Positions 3,217 to 61,340 of a stretch of DNA of 64,000 nt are shown piece after piece. The notes under the pieces were generated by a model. That model did not search any database. It was not told the origin of the DNA and saw only the letters and a program-made list of their open reading frames with translations. The position numbers and the translations under genes were made by a program. The DNA is from Bacteroidales bacterium (GTDB lineage Bacteria; Bacteroidota; Bacteroidia; Bacteroidales; Prolixibacteraceae): assembly GCA_047974415.1 (NCBI GenBank), contig JBKECH010000002.1:13419-77418 (forward strand), read 5' to 3'. Within the stretch, counting starts at the first letter, position 1, and each line of letters opens with the position of its first letter.

Positions 3217-3364
3217 TAGTGTCTGTCTATAATGATGGGAGTCTGAACTAGAAAATTAAATATCAAGGCTTGCCGTTCTGTATGCTGGGAGTTTGTGAAT
3301 TGGGAGTTTACTTGTGTAAATGGATAATTCGCAAAGTAAGCATAACGCAGATAGACGGACTCTA
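3217..3364 (+). mobile_element. MITE-like repeat family 1, copy 1 (short form, forward orientation)
   Basis: TAGTGTCTGTCTATAATG...GTCTGAACTAGAAAATTAAATATCAAGGCTTGCCGTTCTGTAT...ATTCGCAAAGTAAGCATAACGCAGATAGACGGACTCTA aligns with the copies at 10450, 28803, 52355 and others. It is intergenic. Confidence 0.85.
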
Positions 3365-4429
3365 CTTGCTACTTGCGTAGTCTTCTTGCTTGGTGGCTTT
3401 CTTTTTATTGCCAAAGGAATAGACAAGCGATATTTTTGCCTGCGAGTTGCGCAAACCATAGCTGTTGCGATGCGTTGACACCACTTGTCCATGAGTATTA
3501 TTGCCAAGTGCTTGCCCATCTACCCTATAGTCTGATGTAACATTGAAGCGACTTTCAATTCTCACGGCAATACCTTTGCTCAGTTTCAGATCAAAACCTC
3601 CCATCACTCCAAAATTATGGGAATTATTATTGCCAGACCAACTGCCATTGCCACTACCATTGTTATTATAGCCAGTACTAGGCACATAGTGCGAGTATTT
3701 GCCCGTGCGCAGGTAGTTGTAGTTTATTCCCACGTAAGGACGAATAAAAAACTTGTCGTAGTACACCAACAAAGGCAGCGAAATGTTGTGCATCCCTGCA
3801 CGGTAGTTATTGTTCAGCGCTTCGCCAACGCTAATCGAACCCTGTGCGTAGTACTCCTGGCTGTCGCTAATGCCAAAGAGGTAAGCATACTCCAGCCCTG
3901 CTCTCAGCCCGAAATGCGAGTTGTCGAAATTTCGCTTTGCGTACATGCCTCCAGAAAGCATCGGAGCAATGGGTTTGCGATACGATTCGTGCTTATAGTT
4001 TTCGTACCAAATACCCGAACCAAGCGAAACTTCATAACTAGTTTGTGCCATCACCATTGTTTGGAAAGCAAAACCAAAGACAGCAAAAAAACCTAACTTC
4101 CTCATAATCTCTAAATTTTTAATGTTTTCATTAACTATGATGGAGTTTATCGGAATGGTGGCACTTCTGTCTTCAGAAATCAACATTAAATTTGCTAATC
4201 CTGTGGTAGTATCGATATTTAAAATGCTGACAAACTTCACCTTGTCGAGCAATAGATTATTTATCTCTGCTTGGACAAAGACCGTATCGTACACCACAAG
4301 CGTGTCGTAAACAATAACATCCTCGTATACAAACACCGTGTCGCGCTGAGCCTCGGCATCTGGCAACATCCAAAGGAGCAGGAGCAAAATGCTTGCTAGC
4401 TTTAAGTTACTTTGCATTTGCGCTGTCAA
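3362..4429 (-). CDS. Hypothetical exported protein: N-terminal ~108-aa region plus C-terminal outer-membrane beta-barrel-like domain
   Basis: N-terminal signal-like LASILLLLLWMLPDAEAQ. A second in-frame signal-like segment MRKLGFFAVFGFAFQTMVMAQ begins at residue 109 (ATG complement 4103-4105). The Tyr/Gly/Asn-rich alternating pattern ends in a ...ISLVYSF beta-signal. It overlaps the upstream sigma-factor gene by 23 nt. Confidence 0.55.
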   Translation of the reverse strand: MTAQMQSNLKLASILLLLLWMLPDAEAQRDTVFVYEDVIVYDTLVVYDTVFVQAEINNLLLDKVKFVSILNIDTTTGLANLMLISEDRSATIPINSIIVNENIKNLEIMRKLGFFAVFGFAFQTMVMAQTSYEVSLGSGIWYENYKHESYRKPIAPMLSGGMYAKRNFDNSHFGLRAGLEYAYLFGISDSQEYYAQGSISVGEALNNNYRAGMHNISLPLLVYYDKFFIRPYVGINYNYLRTGKYSHYVPSTGYNNNGSGNGSWSGNNNSHNFGVMGGFDLKLSKGIAVRIESRFNVTSDYRVDGQALGNNTHGQVVSTHRNSYGLRNSQAKISLVYSFGNKKKATKQEDYASSK

Positions 4430-5414
4430 TTATAATTATGGTGTCGCGAACAATTAGTTTCTTGCGGACAAGTCTACTTTTCTTTACGATTATAGGTTCT
4501 CTTTCCTGACGAACCTCTTTGTTGTAGGAAGTGTCAGGTTCTGATACGTGTTCGGTAGGCTTGTGCAGCGCAGTGTCGGTGCAGACATCCGAGCCTCTTT
4601 CATTTGCGTGTCGGAGGGTGTTCGTTGGCACGTTTAGTGGGCTGTTTGTGGGCAGTGTTTTATCCTTGCTAAGGCCGTAGAACAAAGCAATGCTCAGAAG
4701 TGTAGCTGTCAGTATACCTACTCCCGAATATACGGCAAATTGGCTAGCCATACTAATCTTGGGAAGGAGAATGCTGTGCCACTCCGTTGTTGTGGGAAAC
4801 GCCGAATGCCGAGGGCTGATTTCAAGATTAAGCAACCTACGTCTATACAATTTATCGACACTTCCAAATTTGCATGGAATGAGCATCAGTAGAAAACGAC
4901 TTTGCTTGTGTCGTTCTTTTTTGCTGATGGCATCTTGCAACTTGCGTCGTGCTCGTGCCAAGTGCGACTTCGATGTGCCGATGCTGATGTTCAACTCCTT
5001 GGCAATATCCTTGTGCGAGTATCCGTCCAGCACATACATATTGAACACCAAGCGGTGGTGCTCGGGCAGTGCCTCTATCATCTGTAGAAGTTGCTCTATG
5101 GTAAAATCGGAGTACATATCATCTTTGTCTTGACTAGCAAGGAGGCATTGTGTCAGCTCCTCCTTGTCGGTTTCGTTCCAGCGCTTACTTTCTCGCAGGT
5201 ACATCAGTGCAGTGTTTACAGCAATCTTGCGTAGCCACGCATCGAAATGCCCCTTGCCACTAAAACTTTCTGCCTTTTGCATGGCAACAACAAAAGCGTC
5301 TTGGGCAAGGTCTTCTGCAAGCTCTTTGTCTGAAACATATCTATAGCAGACAGCTATCATCTTTGCAATATTCCTCTGGTAAGCCTCCTCCCAAAAAATC
5401 TTTTTCAAATTCAT
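4407..5414 (-). CDS. ECF-type sigma-70 family factor with ~160-aa C-terminal extension containing one predicted TM helix
   Basis: Region 2 (DLAQDAFVVAMQK...FDAWLRKIAVNTALMYLR) and region 4 HTH (YSHKDIAKELNISIGTSKSHLARARRKL), followed by the hydrophobic stretch FAVYSGVGILTATLLSIALFYGL and a Ser/Thr/Pro/Lys-rich tail. Confidence 0.8.
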   Translation of the reverse strand: MNLKKIFWEEAYQRNIAKMIAVCYRYVSDKELAEDLAQDAFVVAMQKAESFSGKGHFDAWLRKIAVNTALMYLRESKRWNETDKEELTQCLLASQDKDDMYSDFTIEQLLQMIEALPEHHRLVFNMYVLDGYSHKDIAKELNISIGTSKSHLARARRKLQDAISKKERHKQSRFLLMLIPCKFGSVDKLYRRRLLNLEISPRHSAFPTTTEWHSILLPKISMASQFAVYSGVGILTATLLSIALFYGLSKDKTLPTNSPLNVPTNTLRHANERGSDVCTDTALHKPTEHVSEPDTSYNKEVRQEREPIIVKKSRLVRKKLIVRDTIIIIDSANAK

Positions 5415-5599
5415 AAAAAGACATCTTTTATCATGAAGCCAAGGACGTCCAATCCTTAGCGCTCAAATACAACATTGTACTAATTTGATGCAAAGTTGCT
5501 AAAAAGGTGGCACTTTTTATTCATCAATCTTCAATCATCGTTTGCATGGGCGATGGGCATGTACTACCTTTGTCAGACATAGACAATCACAAAGCAATT

Positions 5600-7877: not shown

Positions 7878-8435
7878 AAGTGCAAACCTATGCTTGAAGC
7901 ATGACCTGCGAACATTTGATGCCTCGTGCAAGTGATCGAAGCTCAACCTACGAACATTTGGAGCTTTGTGCAAGTGATTGAATCTCGACCTGCGAACATT
8001 TGATGCCTCGTGCAAGTGATTGAAGCTCGACCTGCGAACATTTGATGCTTCGTGCAAGTGATTGAAGCTCGACCTACGAACATTTGATGCCTCGTGCAAG
8101 TGATTGAAGCATGACCTACGAACATTTGGAGCCTCGTGCAAGTGATTGAAGCTCGACCTACGAACATTTGGAGCTTCGTGCAAGTGATTGAAGCATGAAT
8201 TGTTAACAGACGGTGAATAATGCAAGTGATTTATTGATCATCTGTTAACATTTGGAGCTTCGTGCAAGTGATCGAAGCATGAATTGTTAACAGACGGTGA
8301 ATAATACAAGTGATTTATTGATCATCTGTTAACAATTGGAGCTTCGTGCAAGTGATCGAGGCATGAAATGTTAACAGATGGTGAATAATGCAAGTGATTG
8401 AAGTGCCAAAACTAAACATCTCAAAATACAAGTGA
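7878..8435. repeat. Tandem array 1: 42-bp unit x7 (7911-8204), then an 84-bp higher-order unit x~2.5
   Basis: The core TGCAAGTGAT (one TACAAGTGAT) starts at 7927, 7969, 8011, 8053, 8095, 8137, 8179, 8221, 8263, 8305, 8347 and 8389, exactly 42 bp apart. A further copy lies at 8427. Confidence 0.95.
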
Positions 8436-8594
8436 TTGAGCCTAGCTAAAAAAAGAGGCTTGCGACAAAAAAAATATTTGCAAGAACTGTAAGAGTGAAC
8501 GTTTGGATGAATGTTTGTACTGTTGTTCCATGAGTTGCTATTAATTGGAATCGTCATATGATAATTGAGCCATGGAAGTTTTATGTGTTTAGGA

Positions 8595-8702
8595 TTCTGC
8601 AATAAGCTGTAAGCTCTAAACTTTATGTTTTTGCTGCTTTGTTAATCACCCTTCTGTGTGTATAGTTAGGCTTGTAGCTTGCAAGCTATAGCTTACTGCA
8701 TG
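8595..8702 (-). repeat. Repeat family 2, orphan copy (start-codon position mutated to ATA)
   Basis: About 80 percent identical by eye over ~105 bp to the reverse complement of 14673-14777. It contains the 14-bp perfect palindrome TAGCTTGCAAGCTA. Confidence 0.85.
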
Positions 8703-10386: not shown

Positions 10387-10449
10387 CGCACGACTCTTGA
10401 CTTCCTGACGCACGATTCTCGACTTCTGACTTTATGAACAAACACTAGC

Positions 10450-10598
10450 TAGTGGCTGTCCATAATGTCAAGAGTCTGAACTATAAAGTTAAATATCAAG
10501 GCTTGTCGTTCTGTATACTGAGAGTTTGTGAATTGGGAGTTTACTTGTATTCGCAAAGTGAGCATAACGCAAATATTTGACTTCATAGACGAACTCTA
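10450..10598 (+). mobile_element. MITE-like repeat family 1, copy 2 (short form, forward)
   Basis: TAGTGGCTGTCCATAATGTCAAGAGTCTGAACTATAAAGTTAAATATCAAGG...GCATAACGCAAATATTTGACTTCATAGACGAACTCTA. The terminal CTA is the complement of the AraC gene stop codon. Confidence 0.88.
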
Positions 10599-11468
10599 GT
10601 TAAAAAGCTCTTTCTGCTTTAAGTAGCTACCCGGATTCAGACCCATTACTTTCTTAAATTGCCTGTTGAAATACGACAAATTGTTGTATCCGCAATTAAA
10701 GCAAACCTCCGAAATGGACAGGTTGCCCTCGATGAGCAACTTGCAAGCAAAGCCAATGCGCACTTCGTTAATAAACTCAGTTATGGACTTTCTGGTTTTC
10801 TGTCTGAAAAACCGACATAGCGATGCGGGTGTCATGTTGGCAAGCAATGCCAAGTCTTTCAGTTTTATTTCCTTGTCAAAATTCGACAATACATAGTCGT
10901 GAATCTTATCAATGCGCCTAGAATGATGTTTTTGGTAATGTTCTGCAAATGGAATGCTCGACAAAATAGTCTCATCCTCCACTTGCGCCAATTCGTTTAG
11001 CAGAGTCAGCAAACTTGTCAGCCGTTCAAATGCTGATTGTTGCAACATCTGGTGCAGGCTTTGCTTAACGAGATGCTTCGCCGATAGATTATAGCTAATG
11101 CCTCGTGCCGATAAGCCAATGAGCCTCCTGATGGAAGACATCTCGGGTAGCTCCCATAAACCATCGCCCATGAAGTTTGCCCCGAAATGTAGAACAATGG
11201 CACTAACCTTCTTCTTGGAATCTTTTCTAAAATAACTATCATCACTTCGCCATACATGTGGCAAGCTGGCACCTAGCAATACTAAGTCGCCACTGACAAA
11301 CCTCGATATATCGTCGCCAATAAAACGAGTACCCTCGCCCTCGATAATGTAAACCAGTTCCAGCTCGGAATGATAATGCCAATGGTCGTGGAACATCGGT
11401 TGCTTGTCCTCGCGTATGGCAATGGACTGATTGGGTTGCTTGGTGAGCTTGAAATACTGAGCTTGCAT
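10596..11468 (-). CDS. AraC family transcriptional regulator (N-terminal cupin-type sensor, C-terminal double HTH)
   Basis: HWHYHSELELVYIIEGEG cupin-like N-terminus. The C-terminal LCRFFRQKTRKSITEFINEVRIGFACKLL...GYNNLSYFNRQFKKVMGLNPGSY is an AraC signature. The gene is divergent from the GH2/SusCD cluster. Confidence 0.88.
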   Translation of the reverse strand: MQAQYFKLTKQPNQSIAIREDKQPMFHDHWHYHSELELVYIIEGEGTRFIGDDISRFVSGDLVLLGASLPHVWRSDDSYFRKDSKKKVSAIVLHFGANFMGDGLWELPEMSSIRRLIGLSARGISYNLSAKHLVKQSLHQMLQQSAFERLTSLLTLLNELAQVEDETILSSIPFAEHYQKHHSRRIDKIHDYVLSNFDKEIKLKDLALLANMTPASLCRFFRQKTRKSITEFINEVRIGFACKLLIEGNLSISEVCFNCGYNNLSYFNRQFKKVMGLNPGSYLKQKELFN

Positions 11469-11701: not shown

Positions 11702-14635
11702 ATGATTATGATAAAAACTAAGAACACGTTAATTTATCTGCTTCTGTCCATGTTGTATACTAGTAGTATTTACGGGCAGCTGACAGTTGCTCCACATCGA
11801 TTATCTGTCGAGCCGACAATAGTGAGCCTAAATGGGAGGTGGAACTTCCATCTGTCTTATACAAAACCCTTGTCCGAAGTTGGAAAAGAAGCCGACAGAT
11901 GGTCTACAATAGAAGTGCCAGGCGAGTGGGCAATGCAAGGCTTTGAAGTTGAAGCAGGCAAGGCTGGAGTTTACTCTCGCACGTTTGACGTGCCAAAATC
12001 GTGGAAAGACCATAAGGTATTTGTGCGTTGCGATGCAGTTTTTAGTGCTGCCAAGCTCTTTGTTAATGGCAAAGCCACTGGCACGCACACCGGCCCGATG
12101 GTGGCTTTTGAAAAAGAAATTAGCGCATGGTTAGAATATGGCAAAGAAAATAGAATAAGCATTGCCGTAACTGCCGAAACAATGGCAGATACTCTGATGT
12201 CTGGAACTCAATACGCCGCCCATCAGCTGGGAGGGATTGTGCGTAAAATATATCTGTATGCAGTGCCAAAGGTCTATTTGTCGGACTTGGTAGTAAGCAC
12301 ACCTTTCGATGCTGACTACGAAAATGCAAAACTAAATATCAACGCAAAGCTAAATAATGACGCCTCGCTTACTAGTGCTGAAGTGTCGGTGCGACTGTTC
12401 GACCTTAGTGGCAAGCTGGTGGCAATGCCAAATGCAAAGCAAAATATAAAAATAGATGCTCAAGAAACCCCACTCTCTTTGTCATTCCCAATAATGAAAC
12501 CTCTGAAATGGGACGCCGAGCATCCCCATCTATATAAATTGGAACTAGAACTTAAAACCTCTGCTGGCACGGAAACCATTATCAGGAAAATAGGCTTCAG
12601 GAAAATTGAGGTGGTAGGGAATCAACTCTTTGTAAATGGAACAGCAGTGAAGCTGAAAGGGGTGAATAGGCACGAGGTGCACCCCTTGCTGGGGCGTAGT
12701 CTTACACCCGATCTGTGGTGGCAAGATGCCAAGCTGTTTAAGCAAGCAAACGTAAATTACATCAGGACTTCGCACTATCCTCCTGCCAGGGAGTTTATAG
12801 AACTCTGCGACAGCATTGGGCTGTATGTGGAACTCGAAAATCCAATATGTTGGGTGGGGCATGGTGCAAATGCACATTGGGTAAAGAACAACCCTAAAGA
12901 TGATGGCTTTTACAAGTATTTTGAACAGATTGCTAGTGCCGACTTGAGCTTTTTCCGAAACCATGCCAGCATCATAATCTGGTCGATGGCAAACGAATCA
13001 ATGTGGACAGAGAACTGGTCTAAACTTGCCGACTTCTATGCAAAGGAAGACCCTACACGCCCAGCCTCTTTTCATGATCAAGCATACGGCGGATTTAATA
13101 ACTACGGTAGTGGGAAGATGCCGGTTGCCAATATTCACTACCCCGGAGCAGACGGTGCTAGTATTGCCGAAGACTTTGAGCGCCCACTCTTGTTTGGCGA
13201 ATATGCCCACCTGAATACCTACAACCGCGAGGAGATTGTAACCGACCCCGGAGTGCGCGATGCGTGGGGTAGGGGCTTTCGTAGCATGTGGGAGAAAATG
13301 TATAAAAGCCGCGGTTGCCTTGGTGGCGCTATCTGGTCTGGTATCGACGATGTGTTCTATCTCCCCGACGGACGGGCGGTTGGCTATGGGGAATGGGGAC
13401 CAATAGACGGCTGGCGACGCAAAAAACCAGAGTACTACCACATGAAGAAGAGCTACTCGCCCGTGAGAATACATAACCGACATGTCGCCCTGCCAAAGGA
13501 TGGTCAGCCCATACGTCTGCAAATAGAAAATCGTTTCGATTTTACAAACCTAAACGAGTGCCAAATTTATTGGGAGCTCGACGGCGAAAAGGGAACACTT
13601 AAGATGAATCTGCCTGCTAAGAAGACTGGAATCCTAGATCTCTACCCAAAGACAAGAGACCTGAACGGCAAAATACTTATGCTTCGCATAGTGTCTCCTC
13701 AGGGTATAGAGGTGGAGGCGTGTGCGGTGGAAATAGGAGCTGTGAAACGAGACGATTTCCCTTTCCAGAAAATATCGACTTCTGAGCTTGAAACTATTCA
13801 GGCGGAGCATGAACTAGAAATAGTTGGACGTGATTTTAAGTGGTCGTTCGATCTGACAAATGGAGTGCTAAGCAGTGCAAATGTCGATGGCGAGCAAGTA
13901 TTAAACGGTGGAGCAGAGCTAATGATGCTCGACCTGAGAACAGGACCATGCAACACGGAACATAGCCTAGAAATACCAACCCACAACTCTCTGTGTACAA
14001 ACAAGGAAGTGAAAAGGGTAGAGTGGAAGCAGGTGAAGGATACTGTGCGAGTTGTGGTGGAAGTAAACTATAAACAGGCCGAGGGTGAAATAATTTACTC
14101 CTTTGCGGCAGGTGGCAATTTGAAAGTAGACTACAAAATGAAATCGAAGTTAAAGATGGACCCTCGACAATGGGGACTCGTATTCTCAGTTCCTAAAGAA
14201 TCTGAAAATTTGCAGTGGTATCGCAAAGGACTGTGGAGTTGGTATCCTGACAATCACATTGGTCGTACCAATGGTAAGGCAGTACCTTTTAGTGATAAAG
14301 CTCTGCGCATAGAATCGTTCGGACAAGAGCCCAAAGACGCTTGGTGCTTTGATGCCACCTCGCTAGGTACTAATGATTTTAGGGCTACTCGCGAGAACAT
14401 ATACTGGGCAGCTCTTTCAAATTCGGCAGGGCGTGGGCTTACCGTTCTTTCTGACGGCACGCATGCTTTTCGGGCTTTTGTAGACGGCGCCGAGAAGATT
14501 AGCTTCCTAGTAGCAGGCTACTCGACAGGTGGTGGCGACCTATTTTTTAGTGGGCATTATGCCAAAGAACGTAAAAGCTTGGAGGAAGGTAGCGAGTTCG
14601 GATCGTCGGCAACATTGCAATTGGTGAAGAAATAA
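11702..14635 (+). CDS. Glycoside hydrolase family 2 (beta-galactosidase-like), secreted, 977 aa
   Basis: Signal peptide; NYIRTSHYPP, IIWSMANES (acid/base NE) and LFGEYAHLN (nucleophile E) motifs. Confidence 0.88.
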   Translation: MIMIKTKNTLIYLLLSMLYTSSIYGQLTVAPHRLSVEPTIVSLNGRWNFHLSYTKPLSEVGKEADRWSTIEVPGEWAMQGFEVEAGKAGVYSRTFDVPKSWKDHKVFVRCDAVFSAAKLFVNGKATGTHTGPMVAFEKEISAWLEYGKENRISIAVTAETMADTLMSGTQYAAHQLGGIVRKIYLYAVPKVYLSDLVVSTPFDADYENAKLNINAKLNNDASLTSAEVSVRLFDLSGKLVAMPNAKQNIKIDAQETPLSLSFPIMKPLKWDAEHPHLYKLELELKTSAGTETIIRKIGFRKIEVVGNQLFVNGTAVKLKGVNRHEVHPLLGRSLTPDLWWQDAKLFKQANVNYIRTSHYPPAREFIELCDSIGLYVELENPICWVGHGANAHWVKNNPKDDGFYKYFEQIASADLSFFRNHASIIIWSMANESMWTENWSKLADFYAKEDPTRPASFHDQAYGGFNNYGSGKMPVANIHYPGADGASIAEDFERPLLFGEYAHLNTYNREEIVTDPGVRDAWGRGFRSMWEKMYKSRGCLGGAIWSGIDDVFYLPDGRAVGYGEWGPIDGWRRKKPEYYHMKKSYSPVRIHNRHVALPKDGQPIRLQIENRFDFTNLNECQIYWELDGEKGTLKMNLPAKKTGILDLYPKTRDLNGKILMLRIVSPQGIEVEACAVEIGAVKRDDFPFQKISTSELETIQAEHELEIVGRDFKWSFDLTNGVLSSANVDGEQVLNGGAELMMLDLRTGPCNTEHSLEIPTHNSLCTNKEVKRVEWKQVKDTVRVVVEVNYKQAEGEIIYSFAAGGNLKVDYKMKSKLKMDPRQWGLVFSVPKESENLQWYRKGLWSWYPDNHIGRTNGKAVPFSDKALRIESFGQEPKDAWCFDATSLGTNDFRATRENIYWAALSNSAGRGLTVLSDGTHAFRAFVDGAEKISFLVAGYSTGGGDLFFSGHYAKERKSLEEGSEFGSSATLQLVKK

Positions 14636-14672: not shown

Positions 14673-14777
14673 CATGCAGTAGGCTATAGGCTGTAAGCTA
14701 TAAGCCTAACTACACATAGGAGGATGATTATAAACCAGCAAAAGCATAAAGCCAAAGGCTTACAGCTTATTGCAGAA
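14673..14777 (+). repeat. Repeat family 2 copy, ending 10 nt upstream of the GH2-2 start codon
   Basis: CATGCAGTAGGCTATAGGCTGTAAGCTATAAGCCTAAC...GGCTTACAGCTTATTGCAGAA, then CTTTAAAAAA, then ATGAAA. Confidence 0.85.
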
Positions 14778-14787
14778 CTTTAAAAAA

Positions 14788-17703
14788 ATGAAAAGTATAA
14801 GCCTGATAGTATCAGTATTGTTAAGTGCTTTGATAGTGCAAGCACAATTTACATTCGACCAGAAGAAGTTGGCAACAATTCGATGGTCTCCTGTTCCGAA
14901 AGAGTTTAAGGGGCTTGAAGATTTTAAAATCAGCCTTGATGGGACATGGAAGTTTAGCCCCTCGCCTGAAGAATCTTTCCAAGAAAAGAATGATGCAAGC
15001 TCATGGCAAGATATCGAAGTGCCCGGAGAATGGGTGATGCAAGGTTTTGAGGTGGATGCAGGTAAGTCTGCAGCTTACCACAGAACATTTAGTGTGCCAA
15101 GTAGTTGGGAAGGATGCCGTATCAAGTTGAAGTGCGAAGCTGTCTATAGTGAATGTACAATCTGGATTAACGGACAAATGGTTGGAGGGCATCTGGGAGG
15201 TTTTACAGCCTTTGAGCTTGATATTACTGACGCTGTGAAGAAGGGAACAAACACCATTGCCATGTCTGTTCGTAGCGAGAGTGTTGTGGATACTTTGTCG
15301 TCGGGATCGCAGTATGCTGTACATCCCTTGGGAGGAATTTCGCGCTCTATATATTTGGTGGCACTTCCTGACGTGAACATTGCCTCTATGCATGTGCAAA
15401 CATCTTTCGACAAATTGTATGAGAATGCTGTTTTAGAAACAGAAATCAACTTGGCAAACGAAGCCTCGACGGGGCGTACAGCCGTTTTGCACTTTCTTCT
15501 TACCGATGCAAATGGCACTAAGGTTTCTTTCGACGGAGAGGCGCAAATGACTGTCGATGTTGAGAAAGGGATGCAAACGGCAATTAAAATGAAGATGGAT
15601 GTAACAAAGCCCAAGAAATGGGATGCCGAACATCCCAACTTGTATTACCTGAATTGTACGCTCTTTGTAGACGGTAAAGAGCAGACGACTGTTTCTCGGC
15701 GCTTTGGATTTAGGCAGATTGAGGTGCGAGGCAATCAGGTGTTTGTTAATAATATGCCCATCAAGTTGCGAGGAGTCTGCCGACATGAGGTTCACCCTTT
15801 GCGAGGCCGCTCTTTGAATGGCAATCAATGGTATGAGGATGTGAAAATCTTTCGCGAAGGCAATGTGAATTACATACGAACTTCTCACTACCCACCCAGC
15901 GAGAAACTTTTGGAAGCCTGCGACGAGCTGGGGATGTTTGTTGAGGTGGAGGGACCGTTTTGTTGGGCAAGTAAAAAGAACGTGAACAACTCAAATTATT
16001 TTGAAGCTATTGTACAGCCAGTCCTCGAGATGGTGGAGATAAACAAATCTCATCCCTCAGTTTTGATATGGTCAATAGCAAACGAATCCTATGACTTTGA
16101 TGATCTCTTCAAAGAAACGTCAGACCTTGTAAAGAAAGCAGACCCCTCAAGACCTAGGAATTTTAGTCAATACGGACCCGACGGCGATGGCGGATATTTG
16201 GAAATTGCAAACAACCACTACCCCGGACCAGGAGGCCCAGAGAAGTATAAGAACTACGAGCGCCCAATTACCTTCGATGAGTATTGCCACCTGAACGCCT
16301 ACAACCGTTTTGAGTTGATGACAGACCCTGGTATTCGCGACTATTGGGGAGATATCCTCTATCATATGTGGGAGAATATGTATGCATCCAAAGGTGTGCT
16401 AGGTGGGGCTTTGTGGGCCGGTATAGACGATTCGTTCTTCTTGCCGTCGGGCAAGGTTGTGGGATATGGAACATGGGGACCAATAGATGGTTGGCGAAGA
16501 CCTAAACCTGAGTATTGGCACATGAAGAAAATATATTCGCCTGTGAAAATCAAACTCATCAACGGCGTTGGAGATAAGGCAGTAAAACTCTCGATAGAAA
16601 ATCGCTTTTTCTTTTCTAATCTGAATGAGTGTCGCATTGAGTGGAGTAACAATAAAGAAAAAGGGCAGTTGTCTGTCGATGCGCAAGCCGGAGCGAGTAT
16701 AGAAGCGACATTGCCATTTAGCTACGATAAGCTGGAGAATTTAAAGCTAAGGGTATATAAGGATAGTGAAGTTCCTGTTGATGAGTATTCTTTCGACCTT
16801 TCCACTCCTAATATTGAAGAACATAAAGAGACTGACGATGAGTTTCATTGGAGCACAAAAGGAAGTACGCAACTTGCCGTTAGCAACAAGATAAGAGTTG
16901 AGATAGGAAATAGAGCTTTGCAAGTTTACGATTCTAAGGGTAACAAGGTCATGGATGGATTTCCAACGCTCATGTTGGTATCTGCCAATGACAAAGGCGA
17001 TACGCAGATGACAAAGCAAACTCCCGACTACACTTTGTACTCGCCAACGGCGTCTAATCGTCGTATTCATTCCATCGACCTTACTAAGAACGACGAGGGT
17101 AGTTTTACTGTCAGTCTTACAGAGGGCTACGATGAAGCCGTAGGTACATTGCAAATGCATTTCTCTGCCGATGGTGCGATAAACATGGACTACTCCTACT
17201 CGATGATGAAGAATGAAAACTTCAGGCAGTGGGGTCTTGCCCTAAGACTGCCAGAGAATTTTACGAAGTTGAGATGGGAAAGAAAAGGATTGTGGACAGT
17301 ATATCCCAAGGATCATATAGGACGTCTTGCGGGTGAAGCTCTGTTAACGTACAGCCACGATTTGTGTGGTTTGGCAGGACCATCCAAACAACCTAACTAT
17401 GCCTACAACCAAGACCAAACGCAATATGGTAGCAATGATTTTCGCTCCACAAAACGCAATGTTTATAGAGCATCATTAAGTTCCACCAAGCATAGTAGTC
17501 TAAACCTGCTGTCGGATGGAAGTCAGCATGTACGTAGCTGGTCGGAAGCTGGAAGTGTTCATTGGCTGATTGCTGATTACGACAATCCTGGGTCGGAACG
17601 ATTCCTCCGGGGATATAGCTCGCACGCCAGACTGTATGACATTCCCCTTACACGAGGACAGAAGATTAGTAGCTCTATAAGACTGAAAATTACAAACGAA
17701 TAA
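14788..17703 (+). CDS. Glycoside hydrolase family 2 (beta-galactosidase-like) paralog, secreted, ~971 aa
   Basis: Same architecture and motifs as the upstream gene (NYIRTSHYPP, LIWSIANES, TFDEYCHLN). ATG at 14788 (MKSISLIVSVLLSALIVQAQ) is preferred to the TTG at 14770. Confidence 0.88.
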   Translation: MKSISLIVSVLLSALIVQAQFTFDQKKLATIRWSPVPKEFKGLEDFKISLDGTWKFSPSPEESFQEKNDASSWQDIEVPGEWVMQGFEVDAGKSAAYHRTFSVPSSWEGCRIKLKCEAVYSECTIWINGQMVGGHLGGFTAFELDITDAVKKGTNTIAMSVRSESVVDTLSSGSQYAVHPLGGISRSIYLVALPDVNIASMHVQTSFDKLYENAVLETEINLANEASTGRTAVLHFLLTDANGTKVSFDGEAQMTVDVEKGMQTAIKMKMDVTKPKKWDAEHPNLYYLNCTLFVDGKEQTTVSRRFGFRQIEVRGNQVFVNNMPIKLRGVCRHEVHPLRGRSLNGNQWYEDVKIFREGNVNYIRTSHYPPSEKLLEACDELGMFVEVEGPFCWASKKNVNNSNYFEAIVQPVLEMVEINKSHPSVLIWSIANESYDFDDLFKETSDLVKKADPSRPRNFSQYGPDGDGGYLEIANNHYPGPGGPEKYKNYERPITFDEYCHLNAYNRFELMTDPGIRDYWGDILYHMWENMYASKGVLGGALWAGIDDSFFLPSGKVVGYGTWGPIDGWRRPKPEYWHMKKIYSPVKIKLINGVGDKAVKLSIENRFFFSNLNECRIEWSNNKEKGQLSVDAQAGASIEATLPFSYDKLENLKLRVYKDSEVPVDEYSFDLSTPNIEEHKETDDEFHWSTKGSTQLAVSNKIRVEIGNRALQVYDSKGNKVMDGFPTLMLVSANDKGDTQMTKQTPDYTLYSPTASNRRIHSIDLTKNDEGSFTVSLTEGYDEAVGTLQMHFSADGAINMDYSYSMMKNENFRQWGLALRLPENFTKLRWERKGLWTVYPKDHIGRLAGEALLTYSHDLCGLAGPSKQPNYAYNQDQTQYGSNDFRSTKRNVYRASLSSTKHSSLNLLSDGSQHVRSWSEAGSVHWLIADYDNPGSERFLRGYSSHARLYDIPLTRGQKISSSIRLKITNE

Positions 17704-26752: not shown

Positions 26753-26795
26753 TATCTGTCCATGATGTTTCGTATTTAACTAAAAACAAATAATC

Positions 26796-27794: not shown

Positions 27795-27796
27795 TT

Positions 27797-27830
27797 GTTT
27801 TGGGCGGACTATTTTAAGTCCGCCCAAAAT
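27797..27830. terminator. Bidirectional hairpin between convergent genes
   Basis: TTTTGGGCGGAC-ATTTTAA-GTCCGCCCAAAA, a 12-bp perfect stem flanked by T and A runs. Confidence 0.6.
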
Positions 27831-27831
27831 G

Positions 27832-28725: not shown

Positions 28726-28780
28726 ATTAATAATTTATCAAATAGTTTGGCAATATTGCCGTTTCACCAAAGGTACAAAA

Positions 28781-28800
28781 AACTTTATGGACGGACTCTA
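28781..28800 (+). mobile_element. Family 1 solo right-end fragment abutting the next copy
   Basis: AACTTTATGGACGGACTCTA matches the right terminus GGACTTTATAGACGGACTCTA. It is followed by TT and then a complete left end. Confidence 0.6.
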
Positions 28801-28802
28801 TT

Positions 28803-28940
28803 TAGTGTCTGTCCATAATGTCGGAAGTCTGAACTATAAAGTTAAATATCAAGGCTTGCCGTTCTGTATATTGGGAGTTTACTTGTGTAAATGACCGATT
28901 CGCAAAGTGAGCATAACGCAGATATAGCTCATAAAGAACA
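28803..28940 (+). mobile_element. MITE-like repeat family 1, copy 3 (shortest form, forward; right end degenerate)
   Basis: TAGTGTCTGTCCATAATGTCGGAAGTCTGAACTATAAAGTTAAATATCAAGGCTTGCCGTTCTGTATATTGGGAGTTTACTTGTGTAAATG...GCATAACGCAGATAT. Confidence 0.85.
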
Positions 28941-35727: not shown

Positions 35728-35792
35728 TTCTGCAATAAGTTGTAAGCAATAAGATGTAAGCTGTAAGTCGTAAGCATATAGCTCATAGCATG
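35728..35792 (-). repeat. Repeat family 2, short copy, ending 10 nt upstream of an in-frame ATGAAA of the gamma-CA-like gene
   Basis: In gene orientation: CATGCTATGAGCTATATGCTTACGACTTACAGCTTACATCTTATTGCTTACAACTTATTGCAGAA, then TTTTAAACAC, then ATGAAA. Confidence 0.7.
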
Positions 35793-38436: not shown

Positions 38437-38622
38437 TATACCAAGCGTGATGATAATCTAAGCCGATTATAGTGCTAGAAATAATAGTGAAAATAATATT
38501 TAGAACGATTATTACGCAATGACTATCCCAAGATGAGTAGTTTATAGCCTTACGAATACTCGAAATGTTCCAGAATTTATAATCCAGAGTCTTTCGAGCA
38601 AAATAATGAGTCCAAAATGTAT

Positions 38623-38860
38623 CATCTGGAGCTTTCCGAATGCTCGAATGCCCTCAGAATACATACTCTTTAACTTTTCGAGCTTTCGAACGGTAAACAA
38701 TTTAACATCTGGAGCTTTCCGAATGCTCGAATGCCCTCAGAATACATACTCTTTAACTTTTCGAGCTTTCGAACGGCAAACAATTTAACATCTGGAGCTT
38801 TCCGAATGCTCGAATGCTCCCAGAATACATGTTCTTTAACTTTTCGAGCTTTCGAATGCT
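38623..38860. repeat. Tandem array 2: 83-bp unit x~2.9
   Basis: CATCTGGAGCTTTCCGAATGCTCGAATGCCCTCAGAATACATACTCTTTAACTTTTCGAGCTTTCGAACGGTAAACAATTTAA starts at 38623, 38706 and 38789. Degenerate related sequence extends upstream from ~38540. Confidence 0.93.
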
Positions 38861-38963
38861 CTCAAACTATATATTCTTTATTCTTCTGTGCAAAATAATG
38901 ATTTAAAAATGTGCTGTATAGATCTTTCCGAGAACAATTGTCATATTAGTATTTATAATTTGG

Positions 38964-39001: not shown

Positions 39002-39007
39002 TGGTAG

Positions 39008-39080
<73 letters not shown>

Positions 39081-41365: not shown

Positions 41366-41456
41366 TTTAGCTCTTAGCTGCTAGCTTTTTACTAGCCTTT
41401 AATCTGTATAAAATCCGAGAATATATTTTAGAAATCAATCATGCTGTAAGTGCTTT

Positions 41457-41492
41457 CTAGTTTAGACTCTCAACATTATGGACAGGTACTGC
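41457..41492 (-). mobile_element. Family 1 solo left-end fragment (reverse)
   Basis: CTAGTTTAGACTCTCAACATTATGGACAGGTACTG compared with TAGTTCAGACTCCTAACATTATGGGCAGGCGCTA at 61307-61340. Confidence 0.55.
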
Positions 41493-44844: not shown

Positions 44845-44908
44845 CTTTCGATAAAAGTATTGTCTCTTCGGATCTTGATTGTCTACTATCAGGCTCCTAA
44901 CATTAAAA
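44845..44908 (-). mobile_element. Possible degenerate, internally deleted family 1 remnant
   Basis: GTGTTATGCTTTCG and GGATCTTGATTGTCTACTATCAGGCTCCTAACATTA resemble CGTTATGCTCACTTTGCG and CCTTGAT...TAGTTCAGACTCCTAACATTATGG. The match is weak. Confidence 0.3.
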
Positions 44909-46741: not shown

Positions 46742-46815
46742 AGTCCGTCTATAAAGTCCAATATCTGCGTCATATTCACTTTGCGAAACTTTGTGATGAC
46801 TTATCCACTTTCGGC
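46739..46815 (-). mobile_element. MITE-like repeat family 1, truncated copy 4 (reverse, right-end half)
   Basis: TAGAGTCCGTCTATAAAGTCCAATATCTGCGTCATATTCACTTTGCGAA..., then diverges. Confidence 0.75.
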
Positions 46816-46901: not shown

Positions 46902-47981
46902 ATGATAAAAGCCATTAGGTGGACATTTAGATATTTGCTTCTTATAATGAACGTGCTGTTTGCTATATTCATTATAATTAGCTACGTGTCGACGGAGGTG
47001 AGTGCTCTCAAATCTCCAATACTACCGTTTTTTGGTCTTTTTTATGTCCCAATACTTATTATAAATATCACCTTTATATTTTATTGGCTAATTTTTAGCA
47101 GGAGCAAGAAGTTTGCCATGGTTTCGCTTGTGTCGATTTTGCTTGGAGTATCTACGTTTCTATCAGTATTTCGATTAAACGGACTTGTAGAGTCGCCTAA
47201 GTTAGACTTGAGTATACTTACTTATAATACTCGTATGTTTCAGAACGAATACAGAAAATCTATAGATGTAGAGGGTGTTATATCAGAATTTGCTAATAAA
47301 AAAGCGGATATATACTGCTTTCAAGAAGCCGTTTTTACAAATGATTTTACAATCAAAGATGTACTGTCAGTTTTTAATAATACGAAAAGCGAGAAGTATA
47401 ATTATTACGCCGATAATCAGCGATACATTATAAGCTCCTTTCCTATAGTTGGCAAAGGGGTTCAGCACTTTAACAGCACTCCTAACGGCTATTTATGGGT
47501 AGATTTAAAAATAAATGACGATACTGTAAGGGTGATAAACTGTCATTTGCAGTCGAATAGTCTTCTTTTAGAGCAGTATAACAATGCGCTATCTGAATAT
47601 GCATTGGATAGCGACGAAGTAAAAAAGCAGGCTCTCGACTTGGGGCATCGTCTTAGTACGGGCTTCCGCAAGCGAGTAGAGCAGGTCAATAGTCTGCTGT
47701 CACATATCAAAACTTGTCCCTATATAGTATTGGTGTGTGGCGATTTCAACGAACCTCCCGTGTCGTATATGCATGAATCCATGACCGAGCTCATCTCCGA
47801 CTCCTTCGAAGAGCGTGGTCGAGGTATTGGTAGCACCTATCGTGGCAAGCTCCCCTTTCTGCGCATCGATTATGTCTTTTACAATAAAGAGATGTTTACT
47901 CCTTGCGTTTACCAAAACCTTGAAATTGGAGATTCAGACCATTATCCATTGTATGTGGGCCTTGAGTTGACGAAGCAGTAA
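46902..47981 (+). CDS. Endonuclease/exonuclease/phosphatase (EEP) family protein with N-terminal multi-TM anchor
   Basis: Three or four N-terminal TM helices, then EEP blocks (LTYNTRMF, IYCFQEA, CHLQSN, GDFNE, SDHYPL). Confidence 0.8.
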   Translation: MIKAIRWTFRYLLLIMNVLFAIFIIISYVSTEVSALKSPILPFFGLFYVPILIINITFIFYWLIFSRSKKFAMVSLVSILLGVSTFLSVFRLNGLVESPKLDLSILTYNTRMFQNEYRKSIDVEGVISEFANKKADIYCFQEAVFTNDFTIKDVLSVFNNTKSEKYNYYADNQRYIISSFPIVGKGVQHFNSTPNGYLWVDLKINDDTVRVINCHLQSNSLLLEQYNNALSEYALDSDEVKKQALDLGHRLSTGFRKRVEQVNSLLSHIKTCPYIVLVCGDFNEPPVSYMHESMTELISDSFEERGRGIGSTYRGKLPFLRIDYVFYNKEMFTPCVYQNLEIGDSDHYPLYVGLELTKQ

Positions 47982-47982
47982 T

Positions 47983-48155
47983 TAGTGTCTGCCTATAAAG
48001 TCAAAGTATCTACGTTATGCTCACTCTGCAAATTAGTCATTTACACAAGTAGAGACGCCCAAACTGGACGTCTCTACTCCTAATTCACAAAGTTTCGCTG
48101 AGCCTTGATCTTGAATTTTCTAGTTCAGACTCTTGATATTATGGATAGACCCTAG
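47983..48155 (-). mobile_element. MITE-like repeat family 1, copy 5 (long form with hairpin, reverse)
   Basis: TAGTGTCTGCCTATAAAGTCAAAGTATCTACGTTATGCTCAC...AGTAGAGACGCCCAAACTGGACGTCTCTACT...TAGTTCAGACTCTTGATATTATGGATAGACCCTA. Confidence 0.88.
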
Positions 48156-48159
48156 TTAA

Positions 48160-48451: not shown

Positions 48452-48595
48452 AACAAATCTGTTCTTATTTCCATGCCTACTCCATAAGCTTTTCGGCTAC
48501 CGCTGTTATTGTTATGAAACAGCCATGGCTATATGCTTTAAGCTTTCCGGCACACAGGCGAATGATTATAAGCCGCAAATGCATTCCACGCCCCT

Positions 48596-49309
48596 CTACG
48601 CTTGTTTTGTATTTCCCCGAGTTTTGATGTTTTGGTTAGCGCGGTTTATTTCCACGGCAATTTTGCGAGCAAATTCTTCGTGTGTGTTTGGCGAAATCTT
48701 CGTCATGGCACGCATATACATCACCAGCTGGTCGTTTATCACCTCCATCACCACCGGCTTTAGCTCGCTTGCCGACTGCTCGCCTTTGCTCACACTAAGC
48801 TGCGAGGTGTATTTGCTGTGTGCCTGCTGAAAATCGCTTTGCGTCTGCTTCAGGTTTTCCACCATGACATCGAGCTGGGCAATAGCTGCCACTTGTGCCT
48901 TTATTTCCGCCACCTCTAGCTCTTCGATAATTGATTTCATTTGAGCCGTTTGTTCGATATACGACATTCGGATCATGCTCAAGCCATATTTCTCGAAAAT
49001 GGCGAAAATGCGCTCTGCCGCCACTTGGGCTTCTCCGGCAGGCAGCAGGGTGCAAGCTTCGAGATACTGATAGCAGGCTCTGAAAGCACCGTCGCGATTT
49101 TGGTCGAAACTTTCAAGCAACGAGTGCGCCTTGTTCTTTTCGATGGCGGTGATGAGCTGCGCATTTTTCTCCTCCAGCAATGCTATGGTGGCATGCAGAG
49201 AGGCATCGTCGGCAATGGGGGCATCGTGATACGCCTTGAGCAGGTTTTCTGCTGTTCCGCCCACTTCGTTCACGCGGGCCGATGCGTTTAGAATAGAAAT
49301 TGTAGTCAT
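48596..49309 (-). CDS. Hypothetical helical protein (resembles the Bacteroidota DUF6261-type family)
   Basis: MTTISILNASARVNEVGGTAENLLKAYHD...; 237 aa, predicted all-helical. The start is set at complement 49307-49309, because the longer track ORF (to 49621) reads through the tandem repeat. Confidence 0.6.
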   Translation of the reverse strand: MTTISILNASARVNEVGGTAENLLKAYHDAPIADDASLHATIALLEEKNAQLITAIEKNKAHSLLESFDQNRDGAFRACYQYLEACTLLPAGEAQVAAERIFAIFEKYGLSMIRMSYIEQTAQMKSIIEELEVAEIKAQVAAIAQLDVMVENLKQTQSDFQQAHSKYTSQLSVSKGEQSASELKPVVMEVINDQLVMYMRAMTKISPNTHEEFARKIAVEINRANQNIKTRGNTKQA

Positions 49310-49336
49310 AACGTTATATTTAAAGATGTTTTGTTT

Positions 49337-49565
49337 AATCGAGAGTTTCTCGATAGCTGCCCAACGAGTGTTTGGGCAATCGAGAGTTTCTCGATAGCTG
49401 CCCAACGAGTGTTTGAACAATCGAGAGTTTCTCGATAGCTGCCCAACGAGTGTTTGAACAATCGAGAGTTTCTCGATAGCTGCCCAACGAGTGTTTGAAC
49501 AATCGAGAGTTTCTCGATAGCCGTCCAACGAGTGTTTGGGCAATCGAGAGTTTCTCGATGGCTGA
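49337..49565. repeat. Tandem array 3: 41-bp unit x~5.5, each unit containing a 7-bp-stem hairpin
   Basis: AATCGAGAGTTTCTCGATAGCTGCCCAACGAGTGTTTGRRC starts at 49337, 49378, 49419, 49460, 49501 and 49542. ATCGAGA-GTT-TCTCGAT is a palindrome. The array ends 27 nt upstream of the adjacent gene's ATG. Confidence 0.95.
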
Positions 49566-49962
49566 CTTTGATGTATGGACGCACCAATGCCGAAAGCTAT
49601 TTTTTGCAAAACCTTCGGCATGGGGAACTAAAAGTAGTATGTTTGTCCTTTTAAAAAAGAGAGAGCGGGCGGGAAATCTAGGATGAGTGTTTATAAAAAT
49701 ATCAACACCACCCAAATTAAATGAGATTTTTTCACCAAAAACTTTTCGCACAGATAGGGTCTTCTCCCTTGTGCTGGCAGAACTTGCAGTTCCTATATGT
49801 TTTAGTGCCTTACTCATAATTAGGGGTAAAGATAGGTAAAACTAAATTAATATAAGCCAACTTTCACTCGCAAAAATATTTTCAACAAAAAATCGGCTAT
49901 TTTTCGATGTTAGCCTAACTATAACCCGCTGATGAAAACATAACATACCTGCGTACTGAACA

Positions 49963-50023
49963 GAATTCAACCCAAATGCAAAGTGAGCATAACGCAGATA
50001 TTGGACTTTATAGACGGACTCTA
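49963..50023 (+). mobile_element. MITE-like repeat family 1, right-half fragment (forward)
   Basis: ...ATGCAAAGTGAGCATAACGCAGATATTGGACTTTATAGACGGACTCTA. Confidence 0.8.
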
Positions 50024-50126: not shown

Positions 50127-50271
50127 CGACTGATTATAAAGTCGGGAGTCTGTACTGAAAAATTAAGTGTGGGGGCTTGTAAAGCTCTGTAGGTCGGGGT
50201 GCTACTTGTGCGAAAGACTTGTTCGCACAAGTGAGTATGTCGCAAGAATCGGACTTTATAGACGAACTCTA
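50127..50271 (+). mobile_element. MITE-like repeat family 1, divergent copy 7 (forward) with a different internal hairpin
   Basis: ...GATTATAAAGTCGGGAGTCTGTACTGAAAAATTAAGTGTGGGGGCTTG...CTTGTGCGAA-AGACTTG-TTCGCACAAG...GAATCGGACTTTATAGACGAACTCTA. Confidence 0.7.
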
Positions 50272-52354: not shown

Positions 52355-52541
52355 TAGATGGAGTCTGCCCATAATGCCAAAACTTTGAACTATAAAGTTA
52401 AATGTCAAGGCTTTTCGTTCTGTATGTTGGGAGTTTGTGAATTGGAAGTAGAGACGCCAAACTTGGGCGTATCTACTTGTGTAAATGATTAATTCGCAAA
52501 ATGGGCATAACGCAGGTATTGGACTTTATAGGCAGGCTCTA
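52355..52541 (+). mobile_element. MITE-like repeat family 1, copy 8 (long form, forward)
   Basis: TAGATGGAGTCTGCCCATAATGCC...GAACTATAAAGTTAAATGTCAAGGCTTTTCGTTCTGTAT...GTAGAGACGCCAAACTTGGGCGTATCTAC...GCATAACGCAGGTATTGGACTTTATAGGCAGGCTCTA. Confidence 0.88.
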
Positions 52542-60439: not shown

Positions 60440-60463
60440 CATATTCAATAATTTTGTTTTTTC

Positions 60464-60976
60464 CTAGAAAGTGTACTGTATTCCAGCACCTGCATTTTGT
60501 CCAAAACCAAGAGCGAATTTCTCAGATGCTCCGTCATAAGTGACGCCACCCATATTGAAGTTAAGAGCCCACCCTTTTCCTAGTTCTGCTTGGAATCCTG
60601 GAGTGATAGCAAGACCAAAGTTAGAATCGCTATTCCCTACTTCAGGGTTATAACCATTTATCCCTAAACCTGCAGTTGTGTAGAAGTTAAAGATGTTATT
60701 CAATGGAGTCAAAAAGATACCTGATGCATAAACTCTGTAGGTGCTATGACTATCATCAACCATTCCGTATCCAAGATCTAGTCCAACTCCCCAATTAGGA
60801 TTAAGCCAGTAGTAACCAGCTACGTTAAGCTGAGCGTTGTCAACCTTTTTTATTGCTGTATGAGTGCTGTATTGAAAACCTCCAGCAAGAGTGAATTTTC
60901 CACCATCTTCGTTTTGTGCATTTGCGAATTGAGCTAGTGCTACACAAGCTACAACCATTAAAAGAATTTTCTTCAT
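60464..60976 (-). CDS. Small outer-membrane beta-barrel protein (porin-family/OmpW-size)
   Basis: MKKILLMVVACVALAQFANAQ signal, alternating beta-strand pattern, C-terminal ...AGIQYTF beta-signal. ATG at complement 60974-60976. Confidence 0.75.
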   Translation of the reverse strand: MKKILLMVVACVALAQFANAQNEDGGKFTLAGGFQYSTHTAIKKVDNAQLNVAGYYWLNPNWGVGLDLGYGMVDDSHSTYRVYASGIFLTPLNNIFNFYTTAGLGINGYNPEVGNSDSNFGLAITPGFQAELGKGWALNFNMGGVTYDGASEKFALGFGQNAGAGIQYTF

Positions 60977-61159
60977 TTTGTCAATTATTAATTGTTTAAC
61001 GGTGCAAAGGAAATGTAATATTTCTATATGCAAGACAATTCAGACATTATAAAAATGTCAATAAAAGCTTATTGCTTTTTGGACAAATTCTGTGTAAAAT
61101 TGGAATATTAGGTATCTTAGGAGCTTAAGTGTTTAGAATTTACAGGTTTGAGTTGTTAA

Positions 61160-61340
61160 TTATGTCTGTCTAAAGTCAAATATTTGAGTCATGCTCACTT
61201 TGTGAATTAGTCATTTATACAAGTAAAGACGCCCAACTTGGGCGTCTTTACTTCCAATTCACAAACTCCCAACATGCAGAACGACAGACCTTGATATTTA
61301 ACTTTATAGTTCAGACTCCTAACATTATGGGCAGGCGCTA
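61160..61340 (-). mobile_element. MITE-like repeat family 1, copy 9 (long form, reverse)
   Basis: TTATGTCTGTCTAAAGTCAAATATTTGAGTCATGCTCACTTTGTGAA...AGTAAAGACGCCCA-ACT-TGGGCGTCTTTACT...CCTTGATATTTAACTTTATAGTTCAGACTCCTAACATTATGGGCAGGCGCTA. Confidence 0.88.

Follow-up and report, generated by a model that had tools for sequence, protein, structure and literature searches.

The window analysed here, a 64-kb stretch of the genome of a Bacteroidales bacterium (contig JBKECH010000002.1 of assembly GCA_047974415.1, positions 13,419 to 77,418), carries a short dispersed repeat, family 1. With a probability of about 90%, we identify it as a non-autonomous MITE (miniature inverted-repeat transposable element) of Bacteroidota, with an ISNCY-type insertion sequence (IS) as its partner and a 6-bp target duplication of the form TAWWTA. 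Family 1 has a cross-taxon consensus of 146 nucleotides (nt), and its variants in the window measure 138–187 nt. An earlier reading made from the letters of the window alone (the sequence-only reading) had proposed a MITE with seven near-full copies, and this holds: the elements are small and non-coding, have terminal inverted repeats and occur in many copies in both orientations. A first profile, built from the seven claimed copies, regained all of them in the window (E 3e-32 to 7e-46), and a second search used the cross-taxon profile. Four of the copies have slightly shorter bounds by profile, namely 28803–28939, 47983–48154, 52360–52541 and 61163–61340. Altogether the window contains 13 family-1 sites that occupy ~1.3 kb, or ~2% of its length. 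A 20-nt end pattern matched five times and an internal 22-nt pattern four times, against 0.00 matches expected for each from 100 shuffles. The sites lie in both orientations, each between credible genes or precisely at stop codons, and the copies contain no plausible open reading frame (ORF), the sole overlap being a spurious ORF of 87 codons across copy 1. The family is widespread and recently active in Bacteroidota, and mostly old in the window.

The element proper reads GWGTCTGTCCATAAWGTC...GACWTTATRGACAGACWC, beginning with G and ending with C, and its terminal inverted repeats of ~18–20 nt (GWGTCTGTCCATAAWGTC / GACWTTATRGACAGACWC) are 82.8% complementary across 35 copies. The flanking hexamers of all 104 end-bounded elements in the fetched DNA were compared, with the outer flanks as control. 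These hexamers were identical in 60 elements and differed by one base in 19 more, and the control gave 0. The commonest was TAATTA (35), followed by TATTTA (8), TAAATA (6) and TAACTA (3); TATATA, TAAGTA, TAGATA, TAATCA, TACTTA and TAGTTA were rarer. Among the 60 perfect cases, the preceding base was C or T in 48 and the following base A or G in 49. The target is YTAWWTAR, a palindrome-like sequence whose central six bases, mostly TAATTA, are duplicated. Duplications of 2 or 4 bp are ruled out because non-palindromic hexamers such as TATTTA, TAAATA, TAACTA, TAAGTA and TACTTA are directly repeated. The TA duplication suggested by the sequence-only reading is therefore incorrect, and its other suggestion, a YTAR target, survives as a half-site of the true palindromic target and not as the full target. 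In complete family-1 copies of other genomes, the duplication is perfect in 31 of 38. The inner left repeat, considered as an alternative working end, showed no duplication in copies that lack the outer end (e.g. L090).

The form of the target accounts for two features of the way in which copies are placed. A hexamer followed by the terminal G or preceded by the terminal C recreates YTAWWTAR, which would explain the tandem junctions (right end, hexamer, left end) with a single common hexamer that occur at copies 2 and 3 of the window and at L011, L053, L126 and L168. In addition, TAR stands at the end of the target on either strand, and with the initial G of the element behind it every junction becomes TAG. 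An insertion at one stop codon, or at two that lie back to back, thus restores the stop without altering the proteins, and copies are consequently intergenic and often abut stop codons. At the fetched loci, there are 48 cases in which the 3' end of a gene faces a family-1 copy, and in 16 of them the gene stops at the junction TAG. Such stops are asymmetrically distributed, with 13 of 24 for the right end and 3 of 24 for the left, though both ends read TAG. Window genes that stop at a junction TAG are those for SusD, an AraC-type protein and a U32 peptidase, as well as the ORF at 3362–4429.

The presence/absence polymorphism that the MITE proposal implied is found among close relatives, in the form of a filled and an empty site. 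Two relatives were available, one represented by L198–L202 and the other by L203, with YchF proteins 93–94% identical and gene DNA ~78% identical. In L198–L202, the convergent genes ychF and queA have both their stop codons within one TAATTA, aatgttTAATTAgtcctt. The same place in L203 reads aatgttTAATTA, followed by a 146-nt copy (GTGTTTG...GGACTC) and TAATTAgtcttt, and this insert has 82–88% identity with window copies 1–4, 6 and 7 and 75% with copy 5. The ychF-queA site is a filled/empty pair with the predicted 6-bp duplication. For copy 6, the syntenic contig L198 (12.4 kb) gave no family-1 profile match; for copy 7, there was none in the syntenic L198–L202, nor at its site in L203. Exact empty sites for copies 6 and 7 could not be aligned, since the relatives have diverged too far between genes.

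The same ends also bound complete insertion sequences. At L023 and L029 they lie 1.7–2.0 kb apart around one ORF (443 and 450 amino acids, respectively), with TAATTA at both flanks. The encoded proteins match the NCBIfam model NF033593, 'ISNCY family transposase', at 379.1 and 355.6 bits (cutoff 325) and also match Pfam DDE_Tnp_1. With the IS5_1 model of NCBIfam, whose cutoff is 275 bits, they reach 113 and 97 bits, and the IS1182 and IS982 models are likewise far below their cutoffs. The partner transposase is of the DDE type, with 440–450 amino acids, and is carried by insertion sequences of 1.63–1.69 kb. A metagenome scan yielded 80 homologues with 59–100% identity, mostly in elements of 1.62–1.69 kb; both ends are present within 3 mismatches in 37 of the 80 and one end is present in most others. 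Flanking hexamers are identical in 22 of 35 IS-sized elements. On contig L168, an ISNCY-type IS is followed directly by a family-1 copy, with one TAATTA common to both.

The interior of family 1 folds asymmetrically. The outer left end (the first 20 nt) is unpaired, and base pairing between the right end and an inner end-like repeat on the left closes a hairpin of ~125 nt. Both folding and the alignment of copies confirm the earlier observation that the end motif is doubled on one side. Covariation was assessed in an alignment of 35 copies with a mean column identity of 61%. In this alignment 83.6% of hairpin cells are paired, compared with 70.8% in shuffles and 33–45% with partners slid, and both sides have changed in 31 of the 46 pairs, a value reached by 0 of 500 shuffles. 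The right end tracks the inner repeat at four variable end positions (e.g. UA 18 / AU 14 and UA 19 / CG 14); the outer left end and the right end show no covariation, 500 of 500 shuffles being as high. In 57 of 60 copies folding favours the plus strand over the minus strand (−52.1 versus −41.4 kcal/mol on average), and G·U cells outnumber A·C cells by 148 to 42, or by 84 to 42 once two invariant G·U columns are removed. We read the hairpin as having been kept in propagating lineages, either through selection for mobility or through concerted evolution of the arms. Hairpin decay was compared between 31 young copies and 3 old ones, too small a sample of the latter.

From the shared ends we infer that an ISNCY-type transposase, encoded elsewhere, acts in trans on family 1 and mobilises the element by cut and paste. 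Insertion takes place into YTAWWTAR with duplication of its central six bases, and the hairpin may be retained because it helps propagation. Several observations weigh against this account. A tblastn search of the 64 kb found no ISNCY-type transposase, in agreement with the absence of a matching transposase reported by the sequence-only reading, and for this reason we infer, and do not observe, mobilisation in the source organism. The family-1 interior is in none of 82 sampled insertion sequences, with which only the ends are in common, and so family 1 did not simply arise from one of them by a recent deletion. Most duplications in the window are imperfect, and the 6-bp rule comes mainly from other genomes, from copy 7 and from the L203 site. 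Finally, an ordinary MITE needs neither a conserved hairpin nor a G·U bias on one strand, and the model explains neither. A parent IS carrying the family-1 interior was looked for among the 82 IS copies and beside bare ends such as those at L078, and none was seen. The family-1 profile found nothing beyond the ends at the 80 IS loci, its single match being a separate adjacent MITE.

One alternative is that family 1 is a MITE whose 125-nt hairpin is a functional, strand-specific module of single-stranded RNA or DNA, perhaps needed for mobilisation or for transposase regulation, and hence an undescribed family of structured nucleic acid within a transposon. We regard this as doubtful, but worth keeping in view. 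It would fit the compensatory changes, which are numerous despite the low column identity, and also the better folding of the plus strand and the excess of G·U over A·C cells. Copies elsewhere are mostly young, as their perfect duplications indicate, yet lineage-distinct, which argues that pairing was kept while they propagated, and at L043 an interior like that of the family lies between ends of another variant. The strand bias could however be inherited, as the 60 copies share ancestry and are not independent, and the arms of a palindrome can evolve in concert through mismatch repair of hairpins or cruciforms, without selection. Orientation relative to flanking ORFs is exactly balanced (24/24/24/24), a result that also speaks against a cis-acting RNA tied to host genes. 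An internal Bacteroidota promoter (TAnnTTTG, the −7 box) is not conserved in family-1 copies. A search of Rfam 15 with the window and four loci holding well-preserved copies gave no family at gathering or relaxed thresholds (E<=5, E<=1); the only match overlapping any copy is a weak one at copy 4 (27.5 bits versus a gathering threshold of 80, E 0.94). If the hairpin is functional, it could bring the ends together or control the transposase, and it would have been kept during spread through several orders of Bacteroidota.

A further alternative, put forward in the sequence-only reading, is mobilisation by an IS630/Tc1-mariner-like transposase with a TA duplication or by an IS5-like transposase with a YTAR target. 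Every copy does read TAG...CTA, the duplication is bordered on its outer sides by Y and R, and the partner transposase has weak, sub-threshold matches to the IS5 and IS1182 models of NCBIfam. We nevertheless consider it very improbable. Non-palindromic hexamers are directly repeated and the empty site shows one TAATTA that has become two; an IS630/Tc1-mariner-like enzyme is excluded by this 6-bp duplication. What remains of the IS5 proposal is a distant relationship, as insertion sequences with these ends encode a protein of the ISNCY model and score far below the IS5 cutoff. No other transposase type lies between such ends at 196 loci (L002–L197), with the ORF and its family checked at L023 and L029 only.

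It is just as hard to sustain the idea that family 1 is an immobile structured RNA or a cis-regulatory motif at fixed genomic positions. A stable, covarying hairpin would suit such a role, but the perfect duplications, the filled/empty polymorphism, the random contexts and the balanced orientation speak for mobility. As the sequence-only reading had recognised, a match to a known RNA family would have changed the picture, and Rfam 15 contains no structured RNA family that fits family 1.

Elements moved by HUH tyrosine transposases were also considered. Repetitive extragenic palindromic (REP) sequences and REPINs are associated with a RAYT gene, and neither REPINs nor IS200/IS605 derivatives are known to have inverted-repeat ends with target duplications. 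A REP/REPIN-like or IS200/IS605-derived palindrome, or a cyanobacterial MITE of the Nezha type, would share the palindromic shape of family 1, but the chance of either is negligible given the inverted-repeat ends, 6-bp duplications and DDE partner (no RAYT search was made) and, for Nezha, a host that belongs to Bacteroidota by gene content and by best protein matches in Bacteroidales, in a window without a HIP1 site. A cyanobacterial origin, which would also have brought Elhai's small dispersed repeats into question, is rejected on these grounds of host.

A scan with the 20-nt end pattern, using one genome per species, returned at least 116 loci; the taxonomic range that it gives is a lower bound and is weighted towards the genomes read first. 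Among the matches listed, nearly all are from Bacteroidota, and a few are from metagenome-assembled genomes (MAGs) labelled Nitrospirota, Ignavibacteria, Calditrichia, Desulfobulbia and Treponema. The lone Desulfobulbia copy comes from a MAG contig of 5.8 kb and could reflect misbinning. Many of the loci contain full-length relatives of the window element besides the ends; the cross-taxon profile of 146 positions finds at least 60 near-complete copies, and family 1 occurs in at least three orders of Bacteroidota. Carriers include Bacteroidales/Marinilabiliales (MAGs, together with Marinilabilia salmonicolor and Geofilum), members of Flavobacteriales (Vicingaceae, Schleiferiaceae and Cryomorpha ignava) and Saprospiraceae. 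A plasmid collection, queried with a window copy and with the copy in the best state of preservation, gave no match at the DNA level. In 2.9 million viral contigs there were three end-pattern matches, all of which lack an inverted partner end and any significant match to the family-1 profile; we read these as chance matches and not as phage carriage.

Many other elements of 60–250 nt share the family-1 ends and have unrelated interiors. In eight of the loci (L009, L016, L022, L045, L084, L086, L103 and L104), the interiors between these ends are short tandem repeats, i.e. minisatellites inside a MITE, such as AAATCTAAAATC... and GGAGTACTT in six units. A small palindrome, CCCGATAGCTATCGGG, is nested in unrelated MITEs with family-1 ends at L070 (5829–5988) and also at L022, L042 and L058, and could represent an even smaller unit, either mobile or a hairpin. 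The element at L043 (5487–5596) has its family-like interior between ends of a different variant (GTGCCCAGTAATAAAAC / GTTTTATTACGGGCAC), nearer to the ISRle10 end type, with TAATTA after it. In a Bacteroidales MAG, a sub-threshold match to STAXI RNA (31.1 versus 40.5 bits) lies at L021 (3701–3845, minus strand), ~400 nt from a family-1 copy. Three Logan contigs from this organism or a related one (L001, L204 and L205; 1.3–2.2 kb) end inside family-1 copies. Short-read contigs that end in this way indicate that family 1 breaks assemblies of these genomes.

The window itself is an ordinary chromosomal stretch. It encodes a SusC/SusD pair, two GH2 enzymes, gltX, lpxC-fabZ, lpxD, mutL, mutS2, ychF and a type III glutamine synthetase, and its YchF is 100% identical to a protein labelled 'MAG: Bacteroidales bacterium'. 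Its family-1 copies are mostly old, to judge from a mutual identity of 72–91%, decayed duplications and the lack of a transposase within 64 kb. Copies 1–3 form the short subfamily and are 87–91% identical to one another. Copies 4, 6 and 7 (78–82%) share an extra G+C hairpin, which occurs nowhere else in the window or in the 197 fetched loci, and for this reason we treat them as a long subfamily. Copy 5 stands at 72–78%. The duplication is perfect at copy 7, retains five of six positions at copies 2 and 4, and has decayed at the others.

Copy 1 (3217–3364, plus strand; E 1.4e-43 with nhmmer, as for the values that follow) has its element proper at 3219–3362, with a 13-nt deletion close to the right end. 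It is flanked by TACGTA (3213–3218) and TACTTG (3363–3368), a decayed duplication, and its junction CTA is the stop codon of the minus-strand ORF at 3362–4429. Copy 2 (10450–10598, plus strand; element proper 10452–10596; E 3e-44) lies between TAGCTA and TAGTTA, and its junction TAG ends the AraC-type gene (10596–11468, minus strand). It is abutted by a bare right-end remnant (GACTTTATGAACAAACAC) at 10428–10445 on the plus strand, where weak nhmmer matches cover 10421–10447 (inverted-repeat pair I22), and the two have the hexamer TAGCTA (10446–10451) in common, giving a tandem of right end, duplication and left end. Copy 3 (28803–28940, plus strand; element start 28805; E 2.8e-39, or 4.7e-27 with the cross-taxon profile) is without its right end and covers profile positions 1–124 of 146, up to about 28925. 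A bare right-end remnant (AACTTTATGGACGGACTC) at 28781–28798 on the plus strand has the hexamer TATTTA (28799–28804) in common with it.

Copy 4 (47983–48155, minus strand; E 4e-34) has its element proper at 47985–48152 and the core of its extra hairpin at 48055–48073. The flanking hexamers are TAATTA (47979–47984) and TAGTTA (48153–48158), which read TAATTA and TAACTA on the element strand, and the TAA stop of the gene upstream consists of the first three bases of the hexamer. Copy 5 (50127–50271, plus strand; E 3e-32) is the most divergent and has a degenerate left end; it nonetheless retains a good fold, the plus strand at −45.5 kcal/mol and the minus strand at −27.9 kcal/mol. Copy 6 (52355–52541, plus strand; E 7e-46) has its extra hairpin core at 52452–52470. 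Copy 7 (61160–61340, minus strand; element proper 61163–61338; E 3.7e-44), with its core at 61227–61247, lies between two identical TAATTA hexamers (61157–61162 and 61339–61344).

Four of the five fragments listed in the sequence-only reading were recovered, and the fifth, at 44845–44908, was undetected at E<=10. Besides the remnant next to copy 3, those recovered are a left-end fragment at 41453–41489 (minus strand; E 2e-5 and 1e-4; pairs I19 and I21), which comprises the outer end and the start of the inner repeat, a right-end fragment at 46739–46788 (minus strand; E 1.6e-10), whose junction TAG is the stop of the U32 peptidase gene (44918–46741), and a right-end fragment at 49977–50023 (plus strand; E 5.5e-11). 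The remnant at 10428–10445 is additional to the sites listed there, as is a bare left-end remnant (GTATCTGTCCATGATGTT) at 26752–26769 on the plus strand; the latter has TAATTA (26746–26751) just before it, and its junction TAG forms the SusD stop codon (26750–26752). Inverted end remnants 2.05 kb apart (26746–28804), flanked by TAATTA and TATTTA, enclose genes for a RhaT-like symporter and a phosphodiesterase, and we count them as two independent remnants. An interpretation of 26752–28798 as a cargo transposon is unsupported: the flanks are uninformative, as all targets look alike, and the nearest relatives of the RhaT-like protein are ordinary Prolixibacteraceae genes with at most 73% identity.

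Other repeats occur in the window. A tandem array at 7894–8403, between genes for an M23 peptidase and the CCA-adding enzyme, consists of ~12 units of 42 nt with super-periods of 84 and 126 nt, and its halves are mutually inverted. An 83-nt unit (each ~2 x 42 nt) is repeated 2.9 times at 38616–38880, between the type III glutamine synthetase gene and a tRNA-Met gene (39007–39080). Close to copy 5 and a MITE fragment, a 41-nt unit is repeated 5.6 times with 95% matches at 49337–49564, inside or at the start of a minus-strand ORF (48596–49621) of the DUF6261 type. A second, unrelated dispersed repeat of ~40–60 nt (TTTYATGTGTTTARRATTCTGCAATAAGYTGTAAGC) is intergenic and present in both orientations at 8579–8640, 14732–14793 and 35712–35766. 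There is also a sub-threshold Rfam match to DUF805b at 48474–48506 on the minus strand (31.2 bits versus a gathering threshold of 35.6, E 7e-5). The two GH2 genes (11702–14635 and 14770–17703) are adjacent paralogues encoding 977 amino acids each, upstream of the SusC/SusD pair and are ~70% identical over at least 185 nt (13286–13470 versus 16366–16550).

The identification of family 1 names and explains a repeat at which assemblies of these Bacteroidales MAGs break up. It also ties a widespread MITE of Bacteroidota to the transposases of ISNCY, on which there has been little work, and shows that they target YTAWWTAR with a 6-bp duplication. The combination of this target with a terminal G lets insertions hit stop codons exactly and leave proteins unaltered. 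The covarying hairpin and the extra unpaired end are testable features, for which the cultured carriers Marinilabilia salmonicolor, Cryomorpha ignava and Geofilum could be of use, and if these features are needed for movement, they could give new insight into substrate handling by this transposase family.

Among annotated plasmids, the nearest named relatives of the partner transposase are those of ISRm17 and ISRle10 (~34% identity), both annotated as ISNCY. ISRle10 has the ends GTGCCCGTCCATAAACG and a 7-bp duplication, TAGTCTA; in the one ISRm17 copy examined there were no clear ends. The end GTGYCYGTCCATAAA is found both in ISRle10 and here, and ISNCY elements of the ISRle10 type resemble family 1 in having a 6–7 bp duplication with TA at both its ends. 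Family 1 differs from ISRm17 and ISRle10 in that it is gene-less, measures ~146 nt and has hosts in Bacteroidota and not in rhizobia, and its interior bears no relation to what is non-coding in the 82 sampled insertion sequences. The partner IS probably belongs to what ISfinder calls the ISDol1 group, which has a 6–7 bp duplication and TAG ends. Members of the IS5 group of the IS5 family use a YTAR target and produce a 4-bp duplication. The family-1 partner resembles IS5 in its related DDE fold, seen in the weak IS5 and IS1182 model matches, and in a target that contains the YTAR half-site, but family 1 duplicates 6 bp, and scores with the IS5 models lie far below the cutoffs.

Among MITEs in general, the Correia elements of Neisseria make a TA duplication. 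MITEs are abundant in Bacteroidota, and some contain nested repeats (10.1101/2024.01.18.576219; BrickBuilt of Porphyromonas gingivalis, PMC4596501). In its main text, the survey of Bacteroidota MITEs (10.1101/2024.01.18.576219) does not mention ISNCY or describe anatomy at the level of families. Neither family-1 sequence strings nor searches that included the terms ISDol1, ISRm17 and ISNCY led to a published description of family 1 in the literature searched. The kind of element is well known, and family 1 itself seems to be undescribed. Classical MITEs (Correia/NEMIS, Nezha, RUP and ERIC; PMC3184786) are, like family 1, small and non-coding, with inverted-repeat ends shared with an IS, target duplications, stable folding, a high intergenic copy number and filled and empty sites in relatives. 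Nezha of Anabaena and Nostoc, for example, measures 130–170 bp and is tied to ISNpu3 (PMC3184786). Family 1 differs from these elements in its IS family, in its 6-bp TAWWTA duplication and in its asymmetry, the 125-nt hairpin coming after an outer left end that stays unpaired, and it is spread over at least three orders of one phylum.

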